A DNA stretch of 64,000 nt. Origin: Cystobasidiomycetes sp. EMM_F5 (lineage: Eukaryota). The position numbers were made by a program, and so were the translations under genes. Where the stretch lies: positions 310,001 to 374,000 of the forward strand of contig JBPGPT010000014.1 of the NCBI GenBank assembly GCA_051047955.1, written 5' to 3'. The notes beneath the pieces were generated by a model that was not told the DNA's origin, searched no databases, and saw only the letters and a program-made list of their open reading frames with translations. Below are positions 17,645 to 29,123 of this stretch, one piece after another (within the stretch, counting starts at the first letter, position 1; every line of letters starts with the position of its first letter).

Positions 17645-18206
17645 ATGACTAGAGTCTCGAGATCCCGTACAAAAGGTTCAGCCAAGGTAGCCTCGACATC
17701 AGCTTGGCCGTTGATAAACTCTGAAACGCATGGTGTTGGAAATTAACACTCTGCAGAATCAAGCAAAGTCAACGAAAACCAAGCGATATGGCAAGGATAT
17801 CGACCAGGTGCATGAAGAGATACAGCGTCAGGCGGCTGGATTGACAAGGACAAGCAAGTTGGACACGACGGTTCAGGAAGCCGAAGCTGAAGAATTGCCT
17901 GGTGCGAGGATGGCATTGACCCGTTCGCTAGGTCGTCTGCGACTGACTTCGTCGTATCGTACAGGCGCTGGAGACTATCCCTGCGTAGCGTGTTCTCGGC
18001 ATTTCATCTCGACAGAAGCGCTCGCAACACATACAAAGACTAAAGTGCATAAACGGCGAATGAAGGCGCTCAAAGATGAGCCATACTCCCAAAAGGAAGC
18101 GGAACTCGCTGCTGGCTTGGGAACCGACAATAAGAGGCGGCCTAAAGATAACAACGACGAAAACATGTCGGTGGCTACTGATGCAAATCAATTAGAAGCG
18201 CACTGA
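17645..18206 (+). CDS. BUD20: Pre-60S ribosome biogenesis C2H2 zinc-finger protein (ZNF593)
   Basis: KTKRYGKDIDQVHEE...ELPG|AGDYPCVACSRHF..LATHTKTKVHKRRMKALKDEPYSQKEAELAAGLG. Confidence 0.9.
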
Positions 18207-18331: not shown

Positions 18332-20691
18332 TTAACAACCCAATCTACCCATGAGAATGGCTTCTACAACATCGCCCTTCTTGACGTCTTGAGCGCCAGG
18401 CTCTTTGCTACTGGGTAGACAGATGAGACCATTGGCAGATGCCAAGCTGACTGTCCTGCTACTCCGCTGACCGCCTGTGCTCCTTGCAATCAAACCACAG
18501 CCGCCGAACTGAGTATCACGGTCAGGTTCAATCCATACGCGATGAAACTCTGGTCTTGGGTCGAGCCGCATATCCGAAGTGACGCGCACTCGCACTCGAG
18601 GCAAATGCCAACCTCTTTGTGTCGGCTCGTCCAGTATCGGAAATCCAGACATTTTGTGCAGACAAGGCAGCACGAAAAGATGAAAGGTGACAAGCGCTGA
18701 CGCAGGATTGCCCGGTAGTGCAAATACCAGTGTTGGAGGTGCATCTATCCGAGAGGCTGAAGGAAAGGTGGCAAAAGTCGTCGGTTTGCCCGGTTTCATG
18801 GCCACCCGACCAAAGATGACGCTTCCTTGCAGGTCTCGCTCGATGACTGGCTTAAGCATATCTGCTTCGCCCATGCTAGTACCTCCAGTCGCAATAACCA
18901 TATCTGCCTTCTGTGAGCCGAGACGGAGAGCTTCTGCCGTAGCAAGCGCTGTGTCCGGCACGATACCCAGATCAACGACCTTGTAGCCATGTGATCGTAA
19001 CATAAGAGACAGAGACGGCCTGTTGCTGTCGTATATGACAGTCAGGGCGTCGGATGGAGTGCCAGGGGCGTGTAATCCAGTAAGCTCATTGCCTGTCGAC
19101 ATGATTGCCACGACAGGTTTGTCGTACACCGAAACCTAAATATTGACGTATTAGCAGCATGGTTGTACTGGGACAAGTGACTTACATCTTTCTTCCCGAC
19201 AAATGCCAGTGTGCCAATCTCACCTCCGATCTCGGAGATCCGCGTCCACTTTTCCAGTACCGTCTCGCCTGCTTTGACATCACTACCTGGTTGTCGGACA
19301 TTCTCGCCCCGATCGACGCCAGCTAGAAGCCTTACTTGCAGCTCTTCCCCGGTGGCTCGATCCGATTGAACGAGTTCCGTATCTTCGACCATGATGACAG
19401 AGTCTGTACCCAAAGGTAGTGGCGCACCTGTGTTGATGCGGTATATAGCGCCATCCGGTAAAGATGTATTCAGAATTGTCGCTGCCGCTTGTCCCACAGG
19501 GGTAGTATCTGTAAGGCCCGGGTATGTAGCGCTTGTGATGACAGGATAGACCCCCGCTGGTGTAGAAGTAGAAGCAATTGCATAGCCATCAACGTTTGTC
19601 GTGGCGGCCTGAGGTAGATTGGACGGTGCCACAATGTCTTCAGCAATGACATATCCCAGCAGCTCGTCCGTCACTGGTCGGATGTGTGTACCGAGAACTG
19701 GCGTGTTTGCAAATATCGACGCAAACGCTTCCTTCATGCTAATGATCGGATAAGGTGAGACGCGATGTCGCGCAGAAGCTGAAAAGATCCGCTCAGTAGG
19801 ACATGGTACACTCAGCGTCTTGTCACTCACCGCCTTTGGACAAATCGGCAGACTGCATCGTGCGGGGCTTTGGGACATGGTGAGAGTGAGCGTGAGAGTG
19901 AGCGTGCGTATGGGTAGTGGAGCCAGAGCTGTGATCGTGGTGGTGGCCGTGATGATGGTGGTGTGGTGTGCTCAAAGTTGATAGTCCAGCAATACCGTTC
20001 TGGCTTGTGATGTTGGAAAGCCGATCTGGCATGCCCATACTATTGTGTACTACTTTCCCGCTACCTCCACTGGCGAGATCCAGCGCATGCTGAACGATAC
20101 CCAGTAGAGCCTGTACATTCTCCTTTGCTCCCTTCGGACTACCTGGAACGGTCGCAATCACCATCCCTTCTTTCGTAACTCCGCAAACGGGTCGACTTAG
20201 AGCAGCCATCGGCGTCTTGGTGAGCGAAGTAGCTAGCAACAGATGCTGCAAGCCAGTTGCTTCCCTGGCGAGCAAAGGGCGTACTGCTTCTGGCGTGACA
20301 TCACGCGCTGAGAATCCAGTTCCGCCAGTGGTGATTGCAAGATTGACACCAACAGCAGCCCACTGATTCAGTGCTGCTTGTATTGCGGGAATCTCGTCCG
20401 GCACTGCCGACCGCACAACGGGCTGTTGATATGCTGGATCTGAGAATAGCTCTGCAAGAGCGGGCCCTGTAAGATCGGTCGAGGGGTCTCTAGACGAGGT
20501 GTCGCTGACTTGGAGAATGAGTATGTGAATGTCAATTCAGCTGCATCACTCATTGCCAACTAAACAGTAGCTGACCGGTCAGTATGCCAACTCGGTAAGG
20601 AGCTGTGTCGGGCAAGCCGCAGCAATTAGAATACGTCAGATAGTCAGCGCATGTTAGTTCTCATATCACGCAGAGCTTCCTCACGCGGCAT
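18332..20691 (-). CDS. cnxE: Molybdenum cofactor insertase (gephyrin/CnxE; MogA G-domain + MoeA E-domain)
   Basis: VGILTVSD, TTGGTGFSARDVTPEA, PGSPKGAKEN (G domain); His-rich linker; NVDGYA, RINTGAPLP, STGNEL, DSNRPSL, TGGTSMGEAD, MKPGKP, ALPGNPASA, TGGQRSSR (E domain). Confidence 0.93.
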
Positions 20692-21074: not shown

Positions 21075-24000
21075 ATGACGGCTTTGCGACCCGAGCAGGC
21101 ACTTCCGCCAAACACTGTATCGAGGCACGAACACGTCAAGCTTACTATCCGGCCGTCGAATGCAATCCACGTCGCGGGTGACAGAGTCTCTGGAATCGTT
21201 GAACTCGCGTGCTCTTCAGAACAGATTGCCCTGGGCCGGATCGCCGTAGAACTGACAGGCCAAGAACGTACGCTGGCGGAACTCTTCAGTATTGAGAGAA
21301 TAGGTGCTGATATCTTCCTGCTATTGACTCAGACCTACAATCGTCCAACAACACCGCCTCTCACACCCTTTTCAGCGCTCGCGTCGTTTTCCAAGCTGCA
21401 AACTTGCCTCCATCAAATGCCGTACATGCATCGCATACGCCAGTCTCTGGGTGCTGGCCGGCGAAAACTGGTGTTACTCGGTTTCCATTCTCCTTCTTGC
21501 TTCCCGACAATATACCATCGACTTGCGTTTTCAAGAAAACGGCCTCAGCTTCGGTTTCCTACGTGCTATGTGCGACTTGCCAAATCCTGTCCAGTGGTCA
21601 GCGATACATCCTCACCAAGTTTTTGGAAGTGCATGTAGTGGAACGATGGTCAGATTGGGCGAATGATGAGTATCGCACAGACGACGCGCGCAAGCAAGTG
21701 AAACACAGATTTGCCGATGGATCTTCTGCCGTTGTGGACGCTTACATCTCTGCACCTCTACTCTTGCATGGAGCACGTCCGCGGGACCATCGTGAACAGG
21801 ACTCGTCCGCAGCGGAAGGAAAGGTTGTCGTCGGCGTGACAGTCAAGCACACTCTGACCCGCACGCTGGCCGGCGGAGTCAATGTAGCACTTTTAAAGAC
21901 ATTGCGGACAGTCAACGCACAAGCCAGGCCTGCAAGTCCTCCTATCGGACAGGAGGAAACAGTTGCGCAGCACATTTTCCAAGGCATCGATTACGAATTT
22001 CCGCCGAGCGATGCTGAGCGCACCGTGATGTGCTGTGTGGAACTACCATCCTTCGAACTGTTTGGTACAATACGAAAGACGAGTCTGTTTGATATTTCCA
22101 CGAGCTTGCAGATAAGCTTGAATCTAGATACTACAAAGTAAGCCTCTGTTTCGGTATGCGCATACGTATTGTGTCTGACTGGATGTGCATAACAGATCTG
22201 TATCTATGACAATTCCAGTATTCATAGCGCATTGGGCATCCATGCCGCCGGAAGCGGTAGCATACAGACAAGACATTGTTCCCCTTGGTACCCGTGCACT
22301 CTCTCCGTTTCTTATTTACTACAATAACGCGGTTTCTCCTTCCTTCGCACATCGAACTTCGCCGTTCGATCCGCCTGCAAACATTCCGCATCAGTACATG
22401 TCCAGTCCGGTACCATCTAGACCGTCGAACACGTCTCGAAACGCTTCGCCGGTCTTTTCTGAGTGGTCGCCAGCTATATCACAAACTCCTCTACCTATGT
22501 ACACTATGCCCGATCCGTGGACGGGACCCAATATGAGTAAGTCTCCTGCTCTTGATCAGCCTGGAGCTTGGAATTCCCCGTACGAAGGTGCAGCCAGCCC
22601 ATCATACCAGTCTTTCCAGTCACCGGCCAACAGCCCTCTACTATTGAATATGCTGAGCTCCCCGGTCGTGCCAAACGGCAGTAACGCTATTGTGCAAACA
22701 CCCGGCATGCTGTCGACAAACGGCCAGTTCGGCACTAATCTGTACATACCATCTTTCATGTCACCAGGACCAGCTGCCAATAATGCTACTGTGCTGCGCA
22801 CATCGCAGTCGTTGCAATCTTTCCCTCAACGCACGCTATCACCCGAGTTACAATCGTACCTGACCCCGCAAGATCAAGCTCGCTTCGTTGCAAATGCCGC
22901 GCCCGCCAGCTACGACGTTGTGCAACGAGCTCATATTCTGTCCCTTAGTCAGCAGATCCAGCAGACCATGCCGGGATACACCGTTGATTCATCTGGCCGA
23001 GCGAGACGGCGGAGCTTACCTACGCCTACGCCGCCGGTCACTCAGACGGGGAAGATCGGTGCGCTCATTCAGGATCATCAAGCTCAGGCGCGGATCCCTC
23101 AGAAGCCGCTTCGCCCACAACGCTCGCAGTCTGCTCAACCGAATGGGTTCTTGGACACCATTGGAGAGGATGGCGAATCGCAGGCCGGAACTTTGAGACT
23201 ACGCGATCTACCAAGATCAAGCTCTTCAGATGCCGTCCGGAGCGTCAAGGCTATCCGCGCCGCAACAGTCGATGAAGAGGGCAATACATCGGCCACGCTA
23301 CTAGAGGACTTGGTGGATGCGCAGGAGCGGACGAAGGAGTACGAGCGGAGTAAAGCGAGAACATCAGGCTTGAGGCGGTCCACCGAACCAGACTTGACTC
23401 ATTTGTCTAGTACGGAAAACATGGCGAGCCCTTCTGTCGATAAAATCTTACCTCAACCGCCATCACCAAACGTGAAGAACAATAAAAGATGGTCACGACC
23501 GAACCTTGTGCAGATTTTTGCCCAAATATCGCCTAGGTCCAAGCGAAAGGCGACCGCACCAGAGGTCGATAAGACAAATACGCCCGAGAAACCTGTTACG
23601 AAGTTGGCTGAGCCACGCACGAGTATGGAAAACAGCATAAGCCCTAGAAAGTCGGCGGAATGCATTCGACCTGCGGCGAAGACGTCTCAATCGGACTCCT
23701 TGCTAGCATTGGAAAAGCGACTGTCACGACCATCATCGCCTAATGTCCGGGCGAAGCAATGTTCCGATCTATGACACTGTCACCGCCTCTGGCATCATCT
23801 GAAGCCTTTCAACCGATACACTCACCTGTCCTGCGTGCAATCTCGCCGGTCGGCGCTCACACCGGCAATGCTGGAGCCTTGCGCAAGAAAAGCAGTGTTA
23901 TCTCACTCAACAAGCAAGCGGCTCGAGAGCGTCCATCGTCACTACCAGCAGCGGAAGCAATAGCGGTCAAGTCACCTTCGCCTAACAGCGTTGCAAATGT

Positions 24001-24706
24001 TTCAAGCGCGAAAGCAGGACGAGCGGAAGGTGTTTCGAGTGCACAAAGTCCGATGGCTCGACCTCTGCAACAAATTCCTCCTGATCGCGGGATGAGCGAA
24101 GTTCACGACAGCAAGCAGCGCGTAGCAAAAGCTACACAGTCTCGGCAAGTTGTGCCAGAGCGCTCGCTTCCCGCCTCGCTTATCGGCAATGTCCCCCCAT
24201 CGAATGAAGCTAAATCGCCAGCAATCCTGATGGACTTGAAGGCGGGAAGGCCCGTTGTTTTGCGGAATATTGTCGATGCATCGCCTGGCCCAGCATCATC
24301 GTCTGAGTCTGATGCACACAATATGGCATCAGCGAGAGGAGGGCGTGGAGGGGTCGTTACAAGCGTGAAATCCGTGTGGACGGAAATGATTGCTGCGCAA
24401 CAACAAGCGGCGAGCAGCTCTAATCGATCAGCCAAGTCTGCGGGATTCGGAAACAGTGAAAGAATGCAAGCTGACTCCGCGCGATCGTTGCAAGGACCAC
24501 CGAAGATCCTACCAACGAAGACTGTTCCAGCCAAGATGTTCTTGAACACTACCTCCGGTAAACAGCCAGTCTTTGCCAAAGCTACGCCTGCATCGTTCCC
24601 CGCTTCCTCTAGCGCTTCAAAATCTGCTGCAATGTCTTTAACGCAACAAGCTAATCAAGAAATGCAGTCTCAGAAGTTCGAGTCCCTTATCGACAGATTC
24701 ACTTGA
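21075..24706 (+). CDS. Arrestin-N-like domain protein with long S/P-rich disordered tail; reading frame broken near 23745-23774
   Basis: HVKLTIRP..VAGDRVSGIVEL..IAVELTGQE..LPPSNAV..GVTRFPFSFLLPDNIPST..VSYVL is arrestin-like. Two canonical introns, then a frame change with no clear intron. Confidence 0.6.
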
Positions 24707-25580
24707 GGCAAAGAGTACTGAAGGCTTGTTCACCGGGATAATTCCACTGAGCCCATAAGGCATTGGGCGAAGTCAACGGGCGAAGTGCGGCCACATCTCA
24801 AGCTTCGCACATACAGGCTGCATCGCGAAGCTCGAATCGGCATACCTGATGTGCCATCACGAATGCAGTGCACCCGACCAACTTGGGTAGAAATGCTACT
24901 ATCCGCCAGCACTCGCACGCATTCAAGCGTAAGTGAATCAGCGGAACTGATGCTCATTGGATGGCATTGATGTCACTTCTGCACGCAGAGAGCTCGAACG
25001 AGAGGCGATAGCCGCGTGAAGCCAAAGATCCAGCCACGACAGCTGCCTAGAGTGATGAAGTTATACCACGAGTTGCACGCAAGGCTTCAGTGCAATCCCG
25101 AGCCACTTATTTGGCTTGTCTCTGCACCTTGTGAATACGCAAAAGCTGTCGTCAATCGACCACGTTCTCATCGGCCGAGAAAAGCCAGCCATAAAGCTTT
25201 TGATAAAACCCAAACCCAATCAACGAGCTGAAGAATTGACAAAACACCTCGGCAACCTGTGACTGTCTCAGCGCTGGGCCGCCGTTGTTCCAGCGTATCA
25301 CGCTGCAGCGTGATCGCTACGTTCTCAGCAGAATCTGAAACAGTAACACTGCACATCATCTCTGCTCGTATATTAAATAAGGCTAGCCGCATTCACGTTG
25401 CTGCGCATCGGCTTGGCTCCAGAAGACATACATGAGTCCCCTGTGACAACACCGCCCGAATTGCTTTTTGAACGGGAAGGCGATGAATGGCAGCGATGAT
25501 CGCCCGCAGTATATCTTCGACAACTTGGTCGGCTACCGCACATGCCGTTCACTTTTATCTGACTCCCGCTTTCCTAAATT

Positions 25581-26483
25581 ATGTCTGTCAACACCTCCCG
25601 TCATCGCCGCACCCAGTCAGTACACCCTAACTTCAAGCTAAATATTGGATACACAAGGCCTCCCACAGCATCAGACAGACTGCCTGCTAGCCGTTCTTCA
25701 TTCACGGGTAAAGAGGTAGTAAATAAGCAGGCACAGCGGATATTGCCCATCAAGACAATCCCGTCGAATCTACTCTGCAAGCACTGCAAGCAGTGGTATC
25801 CGAAAAGCGGATGTGACTACTGTCACAATGCCCAGTGCGTTGCGTTATATCCAAAGACTGGCACAGCAACCCAAATTGGGATTCCCAGTGCCAATTTTCC
25901 CAAAGCTTACAAGGGAGTATACCGATGCACTTCATCCACCTGTACCATCTGTTCAGTCGGTCATTGCACGTTATGCCAGCGGAGGCGCAGGTCGCCGGAA
26001 TGTGACCTCTGCTTTCATCCGAAATGCAAAAAGGTACAGGCCGCTTCCTATGCACCCTACAAGTGTAAATCAGCAAAATGCAAGCCTTGCAAGAGCCGTG
26101 TGCGATGTCTGCACTGTTCGAATCTGGCCGAAGAGGGTTGCGCAATGTGCCATCGCGCAGAGTGTATAAAGGGATTCAGGAACGACCGTAACAAGTGCGG
26201 TCCGATCCGCTCTCTGCCATATCGCTGCGGTTTGCTTTCCTGCCAAAGATGCGACCAGACGCGATGCCAGTATTGCCCGAGGCCACATCAGCCAGGATGC
26301 CAGCTCTGCTTCGCCGGCAAATGCATGCAAGACATCGCAGACAGGGCGGAGCGCTTCAAAGTACACATACCGTATCTATGCGAGCTTGCGACATGTCCGT
26401 CGTGCAAGGATCCCCCAAAGCTGTCAAAGGACGAGACGTCTAGATTGAAGCGAATGGGATTACAAGTTCTGGACGGCTTGTAA
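25581..26483 (+). CDS. Intronless orphan with four 8-cysteine repeats (putative multi-zinc-binding protein)
   Basis: 300-aa ATG-initiated ORF with a regular C-x2-C-x7/8-C-x2-C-x4-C-xn-Y-x-C-x4-C-x2-C pattern repeated four times. Confidence 0.75.
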   Translation: MSVNTSRHRRTQSVHPNFKLNIGYTRPPTASDRLPASRSSFTGKEVVNKQAQRILPIKTIPSNLLCKHCKQWYPKSGCDYCHNAQCVALYPKTGTATQIGIPSANFPKAYKGVYRCTSSTCTICSVGHCTLCQRRRRSPECDLCFHPKCKKVQAASYAPYKCKSAKCKPCKSRVRCLHCSNLAEEGCAMCHRAECIKGFRNDRNKCGPIRSLPYRCGLLSCQRCDQTRCQYCPRPHQPGCQLCFAGKCMQDIADRAERFKVHIPYLCELATCPSCKDPPKLSKDETSRLKRMGLQVLDGL

Positions 26484-26668
26484 AGGTTCCTGTACGCAAT
26501 ACAGCATACCAGTGTAGCCAGTATCTCCACAGTATTCGTCTGTCGCGCTGTATCGATGTCAACGTCATTTTGCGTTATTTTCCCCGACCAATTTTTGGCG
26601 GCCCTTGACCGAGTTTGGTGTCAGCTCAACCTGCCCGCCACTTGAACATTTTACGGAGCCAGCAGCCA

Positions 26669-29123
26669 ATGCCCACACTCTTCAGGCGGTCATCGTCGTC
26701 GAGCAGCAGCAGTAAGACCGGAGCAGCTACGCCAGCCTCACCTGGCGCCGTCGGGCGAGCCACACCACCGCTGCCCCCGACGTCGCCGTCCCCATCGCGG
26801 AGCCTGCTCGGAGTCCGAAAGTCGTCGTCGGGAGCAGGCAACGCAGCGTCAAAGATGGCTGCAACGGCCAGTGGAGCGCAGGCCTACCTGGCTGCGTTTG
26901 CTGCAAAGGCGACGAGTTCAAACAAGTCGATGCTGTCGCCGAGCAAGCAGCACCACAAGGACTATCTCGACGGCGCGAGCGTCTACGGCGACTATGACAG
27001 CGCCAGCATCGCCAGCACCGACACGTCGAGTTCGATATTCTCGCGAGCCAGCTCCATCGCCTCGAGCGTTACGAGCGTATCGTCCAGCGGCAGCAGCTCG
27101 AGCCTGCTCCGCCGTCACAAGGACAAGGAAAATGGAGTATCGCTCTCAATCGTCGGCGAGGAGACTGTACGAAGCAACGACTACGGTATAGAGATGCCTC
27201 GTCGGGAGGCAGAGCTGCATCTATCCAAGGATCCACCAAAGGACGCTTCAAAGCTGCTCCCAGCTAGACATTTTGATCGAGACCCGCACTTTGTTCCTCC
27301 AGCGTTGCGAAACGACAGACACGCGCTCAAGCATGCAGAGTTTGGCTACCAAGAAGAGCCTTTTGAGTATACGAGTCGGTTCCGGGAACATACTGGCACG
27401 GGAGGAGAGGAGATCGAAGAGCCATCTATGCTCGTCTACCTCACAACATACATGTCATATCTAATGCTCATCGTGGTTGGTCACATCCGCGATTTCATCG
27501 GCAAACGCACGCATCGCAAGTCGTACCAACATCTAATGCCCTACGACGTGAGTTTGTGTATGGTTTCTTTTTGAGTGTCACTAACGATGTGCCGGACGCA
27601 CAGGGCTACGCCGCACTCAATTCCGACTTTGACTCCTTCTATACTCGTCGATTGAAGGCACGTATTGAAGATCTCTTTGCAAGACCTGTTACCGGTGTCG
27701 CTGGCCGGACGATAACTTGTCTTGACCGGATTACCGCCGATCACTACGCTACTTTCCGCTTCACTGGTTTGACCACCCAGGCGCTAAACATCTCGTCCTA
27801 CAACTATCTCGGCTTCAATCAGTCTCGCGGAGGATGTGCTGATGCCGTCGAAGAGATTATTCGGCAATACGGTGTCTCTGCACTCGGCAACCGCGAAGTC
27901 AGCGGTACACTAGATTTGCACGTCCACACAGAAAGACTACTGGCACGATTTCTGGGCGTTGAAGACGCTCTTTTGATCTCTCAAGGTTTTGCGACAAACT
28001 CTGCTACTCTGCCAACATTGGTCAGCAAAGGCTGTCTGGTCATTTCTGATGAATTCAATCATTCCTCTATTCGCTTTGGAGTACGCTTGTCTGGTGCTAC
28101 AGTCAGGCAGTACAAGCACAACGATATGAAGGCGCTTGAAACTCTACTTCGCGATTCCATCTCTCAGGGCCAGCCTCGAACGCACAGACCCTGGAAGAAG
28201 ATTCTACTGGTTGTCGAAGGGTTGTACTCTATGGAGGGTACCCTTGTTGACCTGCCAAGGATAATGCAATTGAAGGAGCTGTATAAGGTATGTCAACACC
28301 AGCATTGCTCTTTTCGACAGCGTACTAAACGGGATTTGCAGTTCTATTTGTACGTCGATGAAGCTCACTCGATCGGTGCGATGGGACCTCGTGGACGAGG
28401 CGTGTGCGACTATTTCGGCATCAACCCCAACGCGGTAGATATCATGATGGGTACCCTGACGAAGTCCTTTGGTGCGGCCGGTGGCTATATCGGAGGCAGC
28501 GCAGCAATGATCTCCATGCTCCGCAAAACAAATCACTCCAACGTGTACGGCGAGGCTCACTCGCCTGCCGTTCTTGTGCAGATTATGGCTGCAATCATCT
28601 CTATTATGGGCGAAGAAGCTACAGATCTGATTCCTCCGTTCTTGAGGACACTGCCTACCAAAATGCTGGATGGAAGTGAAGGCCTATCGCGCCTGCGGCG
28701 CTTGGCCTTCAATTCGCGATACCTCAGTACTGGTCTGCGCAAGGTGAGCAATCGAGGCTGTTGCAAGCACTGAGCGCTTCTGATGAAATTATACAGCTCG
28801 GATTTATCGTTTACGGTCATCGAGATTCGCCCATCGTACCGCTACTCATGTTCTCACCCGGCAAGATGGGCACCTTTTCTCGATTGATGCTCGAGAAATT
28901 CAATATTGTGGTCGTCGTTGTTGCCTATCCAGCGACGCCACTCGTCTCGTCCCGCGTCCGCTTCTGCACGTCTGCTGCACATACAAAAGAAGATATCGAC
29001 AGGGTACTCATCGCTTGCGATATCGTAGGCGATGTACTGGGACTCAAGCTGTGCACTCATGGCACTAGGATGTCAATTGCGGACATCATTGCCAACGCTA
29101 GAAACCTTGTCGAGAGTGATTAG
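26669..29123 (+). CDS. LCB2: Serine palmitoyltransferase catalytic subunit 2
   Basis: NISSYNYLGF, SDEFNHSSI, VEGLYSMEG, YVDEAHSIGAMG, PLP-lysine motif GTLTKSFG, YPATPLVSSRVRFC. Confidence 0.95.

Follow-up and report, generated by a model that had tools for sequence, protein, structure and literature searches.

A four-fold repeated eight-cysteine module, without a match among described families, in an intron-free gene of a cystobasidiomycete fungus

We analysed a stretch of 64,000 nucleotides, hereafter the window, from Cystobasidiomycetes sp. EMM_F5 (NCBI GenBank assembly GCA_051047955.1, contig JBPGPT010000014.1, positions 310,001 to 374,000 of the forward strand); all positions given below are those of the window. 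The genes of the window are of fungal type. An open reading frame (ORF) situated between an arrestin-like and an aminotransferase gene encodes a product of 300 amino acids (aa), here called P0001, that contains four copies (R1 to R4) of a module of eight cysteines (Table 1). Since an in-frame stop codon lies just upstream of the ATG, this ATG is the earliest possible start, and its context, with an A at -3, was graded good. An initial annotation, made from the letters alone, had described the product as basic and the gene as lacking both a signal peptide and an intron, and all of this holds: the pI is 9.46 for the whole protein (9.11 for the core), no hydrophobic stretch that could act as signal peptide or membrane anchor is present in P0001 (the maximum Kyte-Doolittle mean is 0.64 over 19 aa, and -0.08 over 10 aa within the first 40 residues), and the pattern used for intron-like GT..branch..AG sites found 0 in the ORF, which needs no intron. 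The 33 cysteines make up 11% of the residues and all lie within residues 66-275; the aromatic residues are 11 Tyr, 7 Phe and 1 Trp. The Cys-free N-terminal region includes 11 Lys or Arg, 2 Asp or Glu, 14 Ser or Thr and 6 Pro. A mitochondrial presequence was considered for P0001 and for its relative P0002, described below, and was dropped, as neither the acid-poor N-terminal stretch nor its amphipathicity is remarkable: the first Asp or Glu stands at position 32 in P0001 and 40 in P0002 (P 0.15 and 0.07 given the composition), and the observed amphipathicity was reached by 4,457 and 1,056 of 5,000 shuffles, respectively.

Table 1. Features of the P0001 gene, followed by those of its surroundings in the window. 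AF2, AlphaFold2; HMM, hidden Markov model; pLDDT, predicted local distance difference test.
Feature	Position	Strand	Basis or remark
In-frame TAA, two codons 5' of the start codon	25575..25577	+	Sequence; stop-to-stop frame opens at 25578
P0001 coding sequence, complete and uninterrupted, 300 codons + TAA	25581..26483	+	ORF listing and translation
N-terminal region (aa 1-65), Cys-free, basic, Ser/Thr/Pro-rich, probably disordered	25581..25775	+	Composition; AF2 pLDDT 32-42
R1 (aa 66-124), 8 Cys, 29-aa loop between Cys5 and Cys6	25776..25952	+	55.9 bits against the ten-repeat HMM
R2 (aa 129-170), 8 Cys, shortest loop (12 aa), RRRR run	25965..26090	+	39.5 bits
R3 (aa 176-224), 8 Cys plus C206 in the loop	26106..26252	+	59.6 bits
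R4 (aa 229-275), 8 Cys; helix-plus-loop half is the source of sub-significant ferredoxin matches	26265..26405	+	49.5 bits
C-terminal tail (aa 276-300), Cys-free	26406..26480	+	AF2 short helix 283-291, low confidence
Gap from the P0001 stop to the aminotransferase ATG, 185 bp	26484..26668		
Class I/II aminotransferase gene, serine-palmitoyltransferase-like	26669..29123	+	Read from sequence
Aminotransferase intron, 56 nt	27548..27603	+	Canonical
Aminotransferase intron, 54 nt	28288..28341	+	Canonical
Further aminotransferase intron	from about 28744	+	Canonical
Two long frames past the LDB19 frame of the arrestin-like gene	22179..24706	+	About 850 aa
Gene with amino-acid-kinase, NAT and semialdehyde-dehydrogenase domains	about 14.4-16.8 kb	-	
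MoeA/MoCF gene	18.3-20.5 kb		
MoeA/MoCF (gephyrin-like) region with His-rich run	19823..20536	-	
162-aa ORF with C2H2-like motif	17718..18206	+	Read by eye

The four modules are exactly those set out in the initial annotation, with which the list of Cys gaps in the translated ORF agrees. They follow the pattern C-x2-C-x7/8-C-x2-C-x4-C-(12-29)-Y-x-C-x4-C-x2-C, the gaps between successive cysteines being 2, 8, 2, 4, 29, 4, 2 in R1; 2, 8, 2, 4, 12, 4, 2 in R2; 2, 7, 2, 4, (10 + C + 9), 4, 2 in R3; and 2, 7, 2, 4, 18, 4, 2 in R4, with linkers of only 4, 5 and 4 residues between the modules. The (P)Y-x-C anchor that had been proposed for all four stands as far as the Tyr is concerned, which occupies the position two residues before the sixth cysteine in every module; the Pro ahead of this Tyr is found in only three of them. 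Strict matches to the module number four in P0001 against a maximum of one in any composition-preserving shuffle (3 of 20,000 shuffles gave one), and a chance origin of the four-module pattern is excluded. No similarity between the modules is left at the DNA level, and the duplications are therefore old. When an HMM of the ten modules in P0001 and P0002 was compared with the six-frame translation of the window, no further copy was found, the next best stretch scoring 10.9 bits (E 0.032). The variable loop of R3 harbors a ninth cysteine, C206 (26196-26198), and module 6 of P0002 has an extra cysteine of its own in the loop between the second and third cysteine; neither is conserved.

The module is shared with one other protein. 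We ran phmmer exhaustively over 1.84 billion representative proteins, a library that represents about 15 billion predicted proteins, with the plain P0001 protein, not a module profile, as the query; at E ≤ 0.001 it returned P0001 itself and P0002, a protein of 495 aa from a second species (E 9.7e-6). In a BLASTP comparison the two are 23% identical over 308 columns (E 4e-15), and in a MAFFT alignment 28% identical. P0002 has 49 cysteines and six modules of the same kind, and its architecture resembles that of P0001: a Cys-free N-terminus of 136 aa, the Cys array, and a short tail. In both proteins the N-terminus is long, basic and probably disordered, and P0002 too shows no signal peptide or hydrophobic segment. 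Both proteins are singletons in their clusters, and both come from unannotated assemblies. To call P0001 an orphan, as had been done, was nearly right and needs amending by this one distant relative. Word-seeded searches of 5.8 billion protein clusters, in which candidates were limited to 165-867 aa, recovered the queries alone (1 of 219 candidates for P0001, 1 of 2,559 for P0002, and 2 of 3,592 for the two-sequence profile at E ≤ 1). Pattern and tblastn scans confirmed no relative in metagenome contigs (57 and 297 pattern matches), viral sequences (85) or prokaryote genomes (50), and the ESM Atlas gave no usable match for P0001 or for residues 130-480 of P0002. As far as these searches reach, the family would currently consist of two members.

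Across the ten modules, four in P0001 and six in P0002, the spacing of the cysteines (C1 to C8) is almost rigid. The gaps C1-C2, C3-C4 and C7-C8 are x2 and the gap C4-C5 is x4 in all ten; C6-C7 is x4 in nine, one P0002 module reading C-x3-C-x2-C. The gap C2-C3 is elastic (7-9 residues), and the loop between C5 and C6 (12-29 residues) and the linker between modules (4-19) are of free length. Other than the cysteines, the alignment shows a Gly before C3 in seven modules, a hydrophobic residue within C3-x2-C4, a His after C4 in six, and Tyr, Trp or His two residues ahead of C6 in all ten. Positional conservation outside the cysteines gave a colinear score of 13, compared with a mean of -122.5 (sd 24.6) for shuffles that kept the cysteines fixed, and none of 5,000 such shuffles reached 13. 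Since the arrays of both proteins open with C1 and close with C8, the choice of repeat unit in the initial annotation is supported. Its description of fixed Cys spacing amid diverged residues holds in P0001 and extends to P0002. However, a module-by-module ancestry of the array older than the separation of the two species cannot be claimed, because the colinear pairing of R1-R4 ranks 64th of the 360 possible pairings and the only reciprocal best match is R3-R3, R3 also being the P0001 module best conserved with P0002. All 80 scaffold cysteines are present (32 of 32 in P0001 and 48 of 48 in P0002). Because they were kept at an identity of only about 23-28%, the module is old and under selection, and this retention is our main argument that the P0001 gene probably is, or long was, functional.

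That the module is unrecognised, and without a match to an existing Pfam family, had been supposed before any search was run, and this was borne out. Neither P0001 nor P0002, taken whole, matched any family in Pfam-A at E ≤ 10, a collection that includes RING, LIM, PHD, FYVE, MYND, HIT, AN1, B-box, zf-CXXC, Zn2Cys6, Stc1, the KDZ-transposon families CxC1-6 and metallothioneins. When single repeats of P0001 were used, Fer2 (PF00111; E 0.038), Toxin-deaminase (0.24) and OAF_C (0.46) each appeared in one of the four, the first two with scores under their printed cut-offs. NCBIfam and PHROGs gave 0 families for P0001, and for P0002 the best PHROGs row had an E of 0.28. Among PDB sequences none was found at E < 0.01, whether the whole protein, a four-repeat profile or a two-species profile was used. 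A literature search for the exact spacing of the module turned up no comparable module; papers on archaeal Pol-D and on rotavirus NSP1, judged from their titles and the beginnings of their abstracts, are unrelated. By these comparisons the module matches no described family; it appears to be new and would belong among the small metal modules with Cys ligands.

Several known families share part of the pattern. Binuclear cross-braced fingers such as MYND and AN1 resemble the module in the spacing logic of the first five cysteines and in placing eight ligands for two metals in about 40-50 aa; HIT, B-box and ZnF-UBP are further fingers of this type, with a start of the form C-x2-C-x7-12-C-x2-C-x4/5-C. 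According to extracts of the papers concerned, the AN1 pattern is CX2CX9-12CX1-2CX4CX2HX5HXC (PMC3111467), and MYND is a C4-C2HC domain with cross-brace wiring in which C/H-x3-C pairs close both sites (PMC3555993). The P0001 module differs from both in lacking a sixth ligand two to three residues past C5, in lacking His ligands, and in placing the last three ligands after a loop of 12-29 aa; moreover, a tight tandem array of four to six copies, as found here, would be unusual for domains of the MYND or AN1 type. The Pfam models of these cross-braced families gave no match at E ≤ 10. Membership in MYND was rejected, as no Cys or His is found three residues after C5, an H-x3-C pair is absent, and the closing ligands are C-x4-C-x2-C.

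Among PDB sequences, the four-repeat profile came closest to the RanBP2-type finger of ZRANB2 (PDB 2k1p), with an E of 0.1 on C1-C4. As in that zinc ribbon, the aligned part of the module has two CxxC knuckles around a short hairpin; the ribbon, however, has a knuckle gap of 10 in the alignment compared with 7-9 here, binds one zinc and has no second half. RanBP2 fingers follow the pattern W-x-C-x2-4-C-x3-N-x6-C-x2-C, in which the Trp and the Asn mark the family. This assignment was rejected given the non-significant E, the gap of 7-9 and the absence of the conserved Trp and Asn from the module alignment. With the two-species profile, C2H2 fingers of TFIIIA (PDB 1un6 and 2j7j) were matched on R3 at E 0.016-0.023, which is not significant. 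Within R3, C4-x4-C5-x-K-x-F and P-Y-x-C6-x4-C7 fall on the Cys knuckles, the conserved Phe and the linker that joins two consecutive fingers; nevertheless, the module lacks the His pair, and its period is 47-60 aa compared with about 30 in C2H2 arrays. No conserved His pair of the kind C-x2-4-C-x12-H-x3-5-H and no zf-C2H2 Pfam match was found, and C2H2 membership was likewise rejected. Cytochromes c account for 17 of the 22 PDB rows of the four-repeat profile (E 0.41-4.9), through G-C-x-x-C-H alone. A c-type multi-haem cytochrome, which would need CxxCH haem-attachment sites without exception and export to the compartment of haem attachment, was not accepted: CxxCH occurs at C3-x2-C4 in only two of four P0001 and four of six P0002 modules, and there is no signal peptide.

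A different resemblance is to iron-sulfur (Fe-S) proteins. The string P-Y-x-C-x4-C-x2-C is almost literally common to the module and to plant-type ferredoxins, and in R4 the preceding helix aligns as well. An alternative explanation for the array is that (P)Y-x-C6-x4-C7-x2-C8, together with C5, forms a loop like that of plant-type [2Fe-2S] ferredoxins, that C1-C4 make up a second Fe-S, rubredoxin-like or zinc site, and that the protein is a chain of redox or cluster centres. We consider this unlikely, while granting it a small chance. Fe-S clusters have been found in several proteins that had originally been annotated as zinc fingers. Fer2 was the best Pfam match of any single repeat (14.4 bits, in R4), the ungapped R4 alignment spanning the helix into the ferredoxin cluster loop; a search with the whole of P0001 led to ferredoxin 1pfd through the same segment (E 0.7); and nine of the 14 PDB rows of the two-species profile were plant-type ferredoxins (E 0.088-0.42). 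The Fer2 loop C-x4-C-x2-C is found in all four P0001 modules and in five of the six in P0002. In addition, the spacing CX2CX7CX2C resembles the Fe-S-binding M2 motif of anamorsin, as described in an extract of PMC8251831; this likeness to the CIAPIN1 domain of anamorsin/Dre2 concerns C1-C4 of the x7 modules and is one of spacing only, as P0001 has no M1 motif, a different architecture and no CIAPIN1 Pfam match. However, every ferredoxin match is below significance, and the nine ferredoxin rows come from one family and are not independent. The Fer2 match falls short of the gathering score of 21 bits, occurs in one of the four repeats, the helix similarity being limited to R4, and covers profile positions 17-44 of 77, with the remainder of the domain unmatched. 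In the extract of PMC8928951, the [2Fe-2S] ferredoxin signature is CX4CX2C...C with the fourth cysteine 22-65 residues downstream. There is no cysteine downstream of the last P0001 module, and the fourth ligand would have to come from upstream. Fer2 membership was rejected on the score and on this missing cysteine, and as far as the sequence goes the ferredoxin likeness is a motif resemblance, not evidence of membership. The more specific proposal, that the module could be a new eukaryotic Fe-S unit in which C5, from upstream, closes a ferredoxin-like loop around a [2Fe-2S] cluster and C-x2-C-x7/8-C-x2-C forms a neighbouring site of the rubredoxin or anamorsin kind, seems to us distinctly unlikely. 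If it were true, the four to six units would form a soluble chain of 8-12 metal centres, an electron wire or a store or carrier of clusters, and the module would add a new class of fold to those that bind Fe-S and be one more "zinc finger" that is in fact an Fe-S protein.

We prefer to read the module as a mini-domain of about 45-60 aa with two metal sites. It would consist of two rigid pieces, C1-x2-C2-x7-9-C3-x2-C4-x4-C5 and (P)Y-x-C6-x4-C7-x2-C8, joined by the loop of free length, and its eight thiolates would form two tetrahedral Cys4 sites, most likely for zinc, so that P0001 would carry eight metal ions and resemble a disordered basic N-terminus followed by a row of small knots, each stapled by metal. 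In an intracellular protein, Cys4 metal sites are usually recognised by CxxC pairs and an even number of cysteines, eight, per unit. We infer such sites because the eight invariant thiols of each unit come as four knuckle-like pairs in a protein with no evident route to an oxidising compartment; the absence of a hydrophobic segment suggests that the protein is intracellular. Two metals per module, with zinc as the metal, is the most economical reading of the pattern, although metal, fold and function are all inferred from it. The wiring could be sequential and LIM-like, with C1-C4 forming one site and C5 with C6-C8 the other, or cross-braced as in MYND and RING, with C1, C2, C5 and C6 in one site and C3, C4, C7 and C8 in the other; an extract of PMC3555993 assigns the cross-brace to MYND, RING and PHD and the sequential arrangement to LIM. 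Either wiring appears compatible with the module, and we make no choice between them. The likeliest role, held with low confidence, would be the binding of a polyanion (RNA or DNA) or of a partner protein rather than catalysis, because the surfaces between the cysteines are basic and fast-evolving.

The same cysteines might instead be oxidised. In this explanation P0001 is a disulfide-knotted repeat protein outside the cytosol, for example an unconventionally secreted effector or a surface protein, with four disulfides per module. An even number of cysteines, fast evolution and few members are common in fungal effectors, and the even Cys count per module, the fast-evolving residues between the cysteines and the two known members agree with this. 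However, neither P0001 nor P0002 has a signal peptide or hydrophobic segment, both carry a long basic disordered N-terminus, and the four CxxC-type pairs of each module are what one expects of metal knuckles and not of disulfide knots; we regard the explanation as improbable. Still less probable, in our judgement to the point of being hardly credible, is a metallothionein-like buffer whose cysteines would gather Zn, Cu or Cd ions, in varying number, into clusters that lack a defined fold. Although the cysteines are many and no enzymatic or binding domain is recognisable, metallothioneins contain about 30% Cys in C-C, C-x-C and C-x-x-C clusters and few aromatics. Cys makes up just 11% of P0001 (33 of 300), no C-C or C-x-C pair occurs, the loops are long (12-29 aa), and the strictly fixed spacing, the conserved aromatic anchor and the Gly point to a defined fold. 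Metallothionein membership was rejected on the Cys content, the missing pairs and the presence of aromatics.

The initial annotation had also raised a retro- or horizontally derived origin, and this suggestion found no support. Had the gene been acquired horizontally, from a transposon or virus, or as a retroposed copy, this would account for the intronless state of P0001 beside an aminotransferase gene with three introns or more, and the phyletic distribution is extremely narrow. However, the GC content of 0.51-0.53 and the GC at third codon positions of 0.573 are neighbour-like (0.50-0.61 in seven neighbouring exons), the ORF is not flanked by a target-site duplication, a terminal, direct or inverted repeat or a poly-A tract, and no relative was confirmed in viral, prokaryotic or metagenome contigs, with 0 families in PHROGs. 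An intronless gene of 900 bp is not rare in fungi. There is no sign of a retro-, viral, transposon or horizontal origin, and we think a foreign source quite improbable.

The aminotransferase gene lies on the same strand as P0001, and its introns, at least three in number, are short and canonical. The one of 54 nt (GTATGT...TACTAAAC...CAG) is in frame and free of stops, and a simple ORF scan runs across it, which lengthens the translation by 18 spurious residues. On the other side of P0001, the arrestin-like gene has a weak LDB19 match (E 5e-4, below the cut-off), and its last long frame ends at 24706; the two long frames past the LDB19 frame are of low complexity, rich in Ser, Pro and Ala, match no Pfam family and presumably encode the disordered tail of an arrestin-related adaptor. 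Further upstream, the three-domain gene on the minus strand is presumably the ARG5,6-type fusion known from fungi. The MoeA/MoCF gene has between its domains a His-rich run, HHHHHGHHHDH followed by HTHAHSHAHSHH, and in the 162-aa ORF one C2H2-like motif (C-x2-C...H-x5-H) stands ahead of basic residues. Within the window, neither Rfam at its gathering thresholds nor ARAGORN gave a hit.

Between P0001 and the aminotransferase gene, the short gap leaves little room for a terminator and a promoter. Because of it, the promoter or 5' leader of the aminotransferase gene must overlap the P0001 ORF or its 3' end, and read-through, bicistronic or overlapping transcription units are conceivable. This bears on the possibility that the ORF is a relic, either unexpressed or carried only within the long 5' leader that belongs to the aminotransferase gene, its modules being left over from a gene that once functioned. 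Apart from the 185 bp to the next ATG, this explanation could draw on the singleton clusters from unannotated assemblies and on a codon usage marginally under that of the neighbours: the synonymous-codon fit is -0.02, compared with +0.007 to +0.09 among the neighbours, in a genome whose codon bias is weak. However, the frame of 300 codons is intact with all of its 32 scaffold cysteines, the start context is good, and the complete scaffold of 48 cysteines in P0002, at such low identity, argues for long purifying selection on the cysteines. We judge a relic to be a slim prospect, of about the same standing as the new Fe-S unit considered above.

The short gap and the codon fit also count against a functional metal-binding array, and other observations do so as well. 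No zinc-finger family was matched even weakly apart from the RanBP2-type and TFIIIA fingers (E 0.1 and 0.016), neither of them significantly. Structure prediction did not help: AF2 gave no usable model for the whole of P0001 (pLDDT 37.9) or for R4 with a four-row repeat alignment (pLDDT 48.8), and the 0 matches at E ≤ 10 in a Foldseek search of the PDB come from that R4 model, which is too poor for the blank to be meaningful. Finally, a family of two members makes any functional claim thin. Taking both sides together, our tentative reading, which we hold at somewhat less than even strength, is that P0001 is a real, intron-free, lineage-restricted fungal gene whose product would be intracellular and would consist largely of an array of two-site Cys4 metal modules.

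If this reading is right, the module would be an undescribed binuclear Cys8 mini-domain with a ligand spacing of its own, five and three cysteines split by a free loop, that forms tight tandem arrays. The family, small as it is, may then serve as a test case for how new metal-binding folds originate and then drift with nothing but the ligands retained, and for whether a Cys4 site holds zinc or an iron-sulfur cluster.

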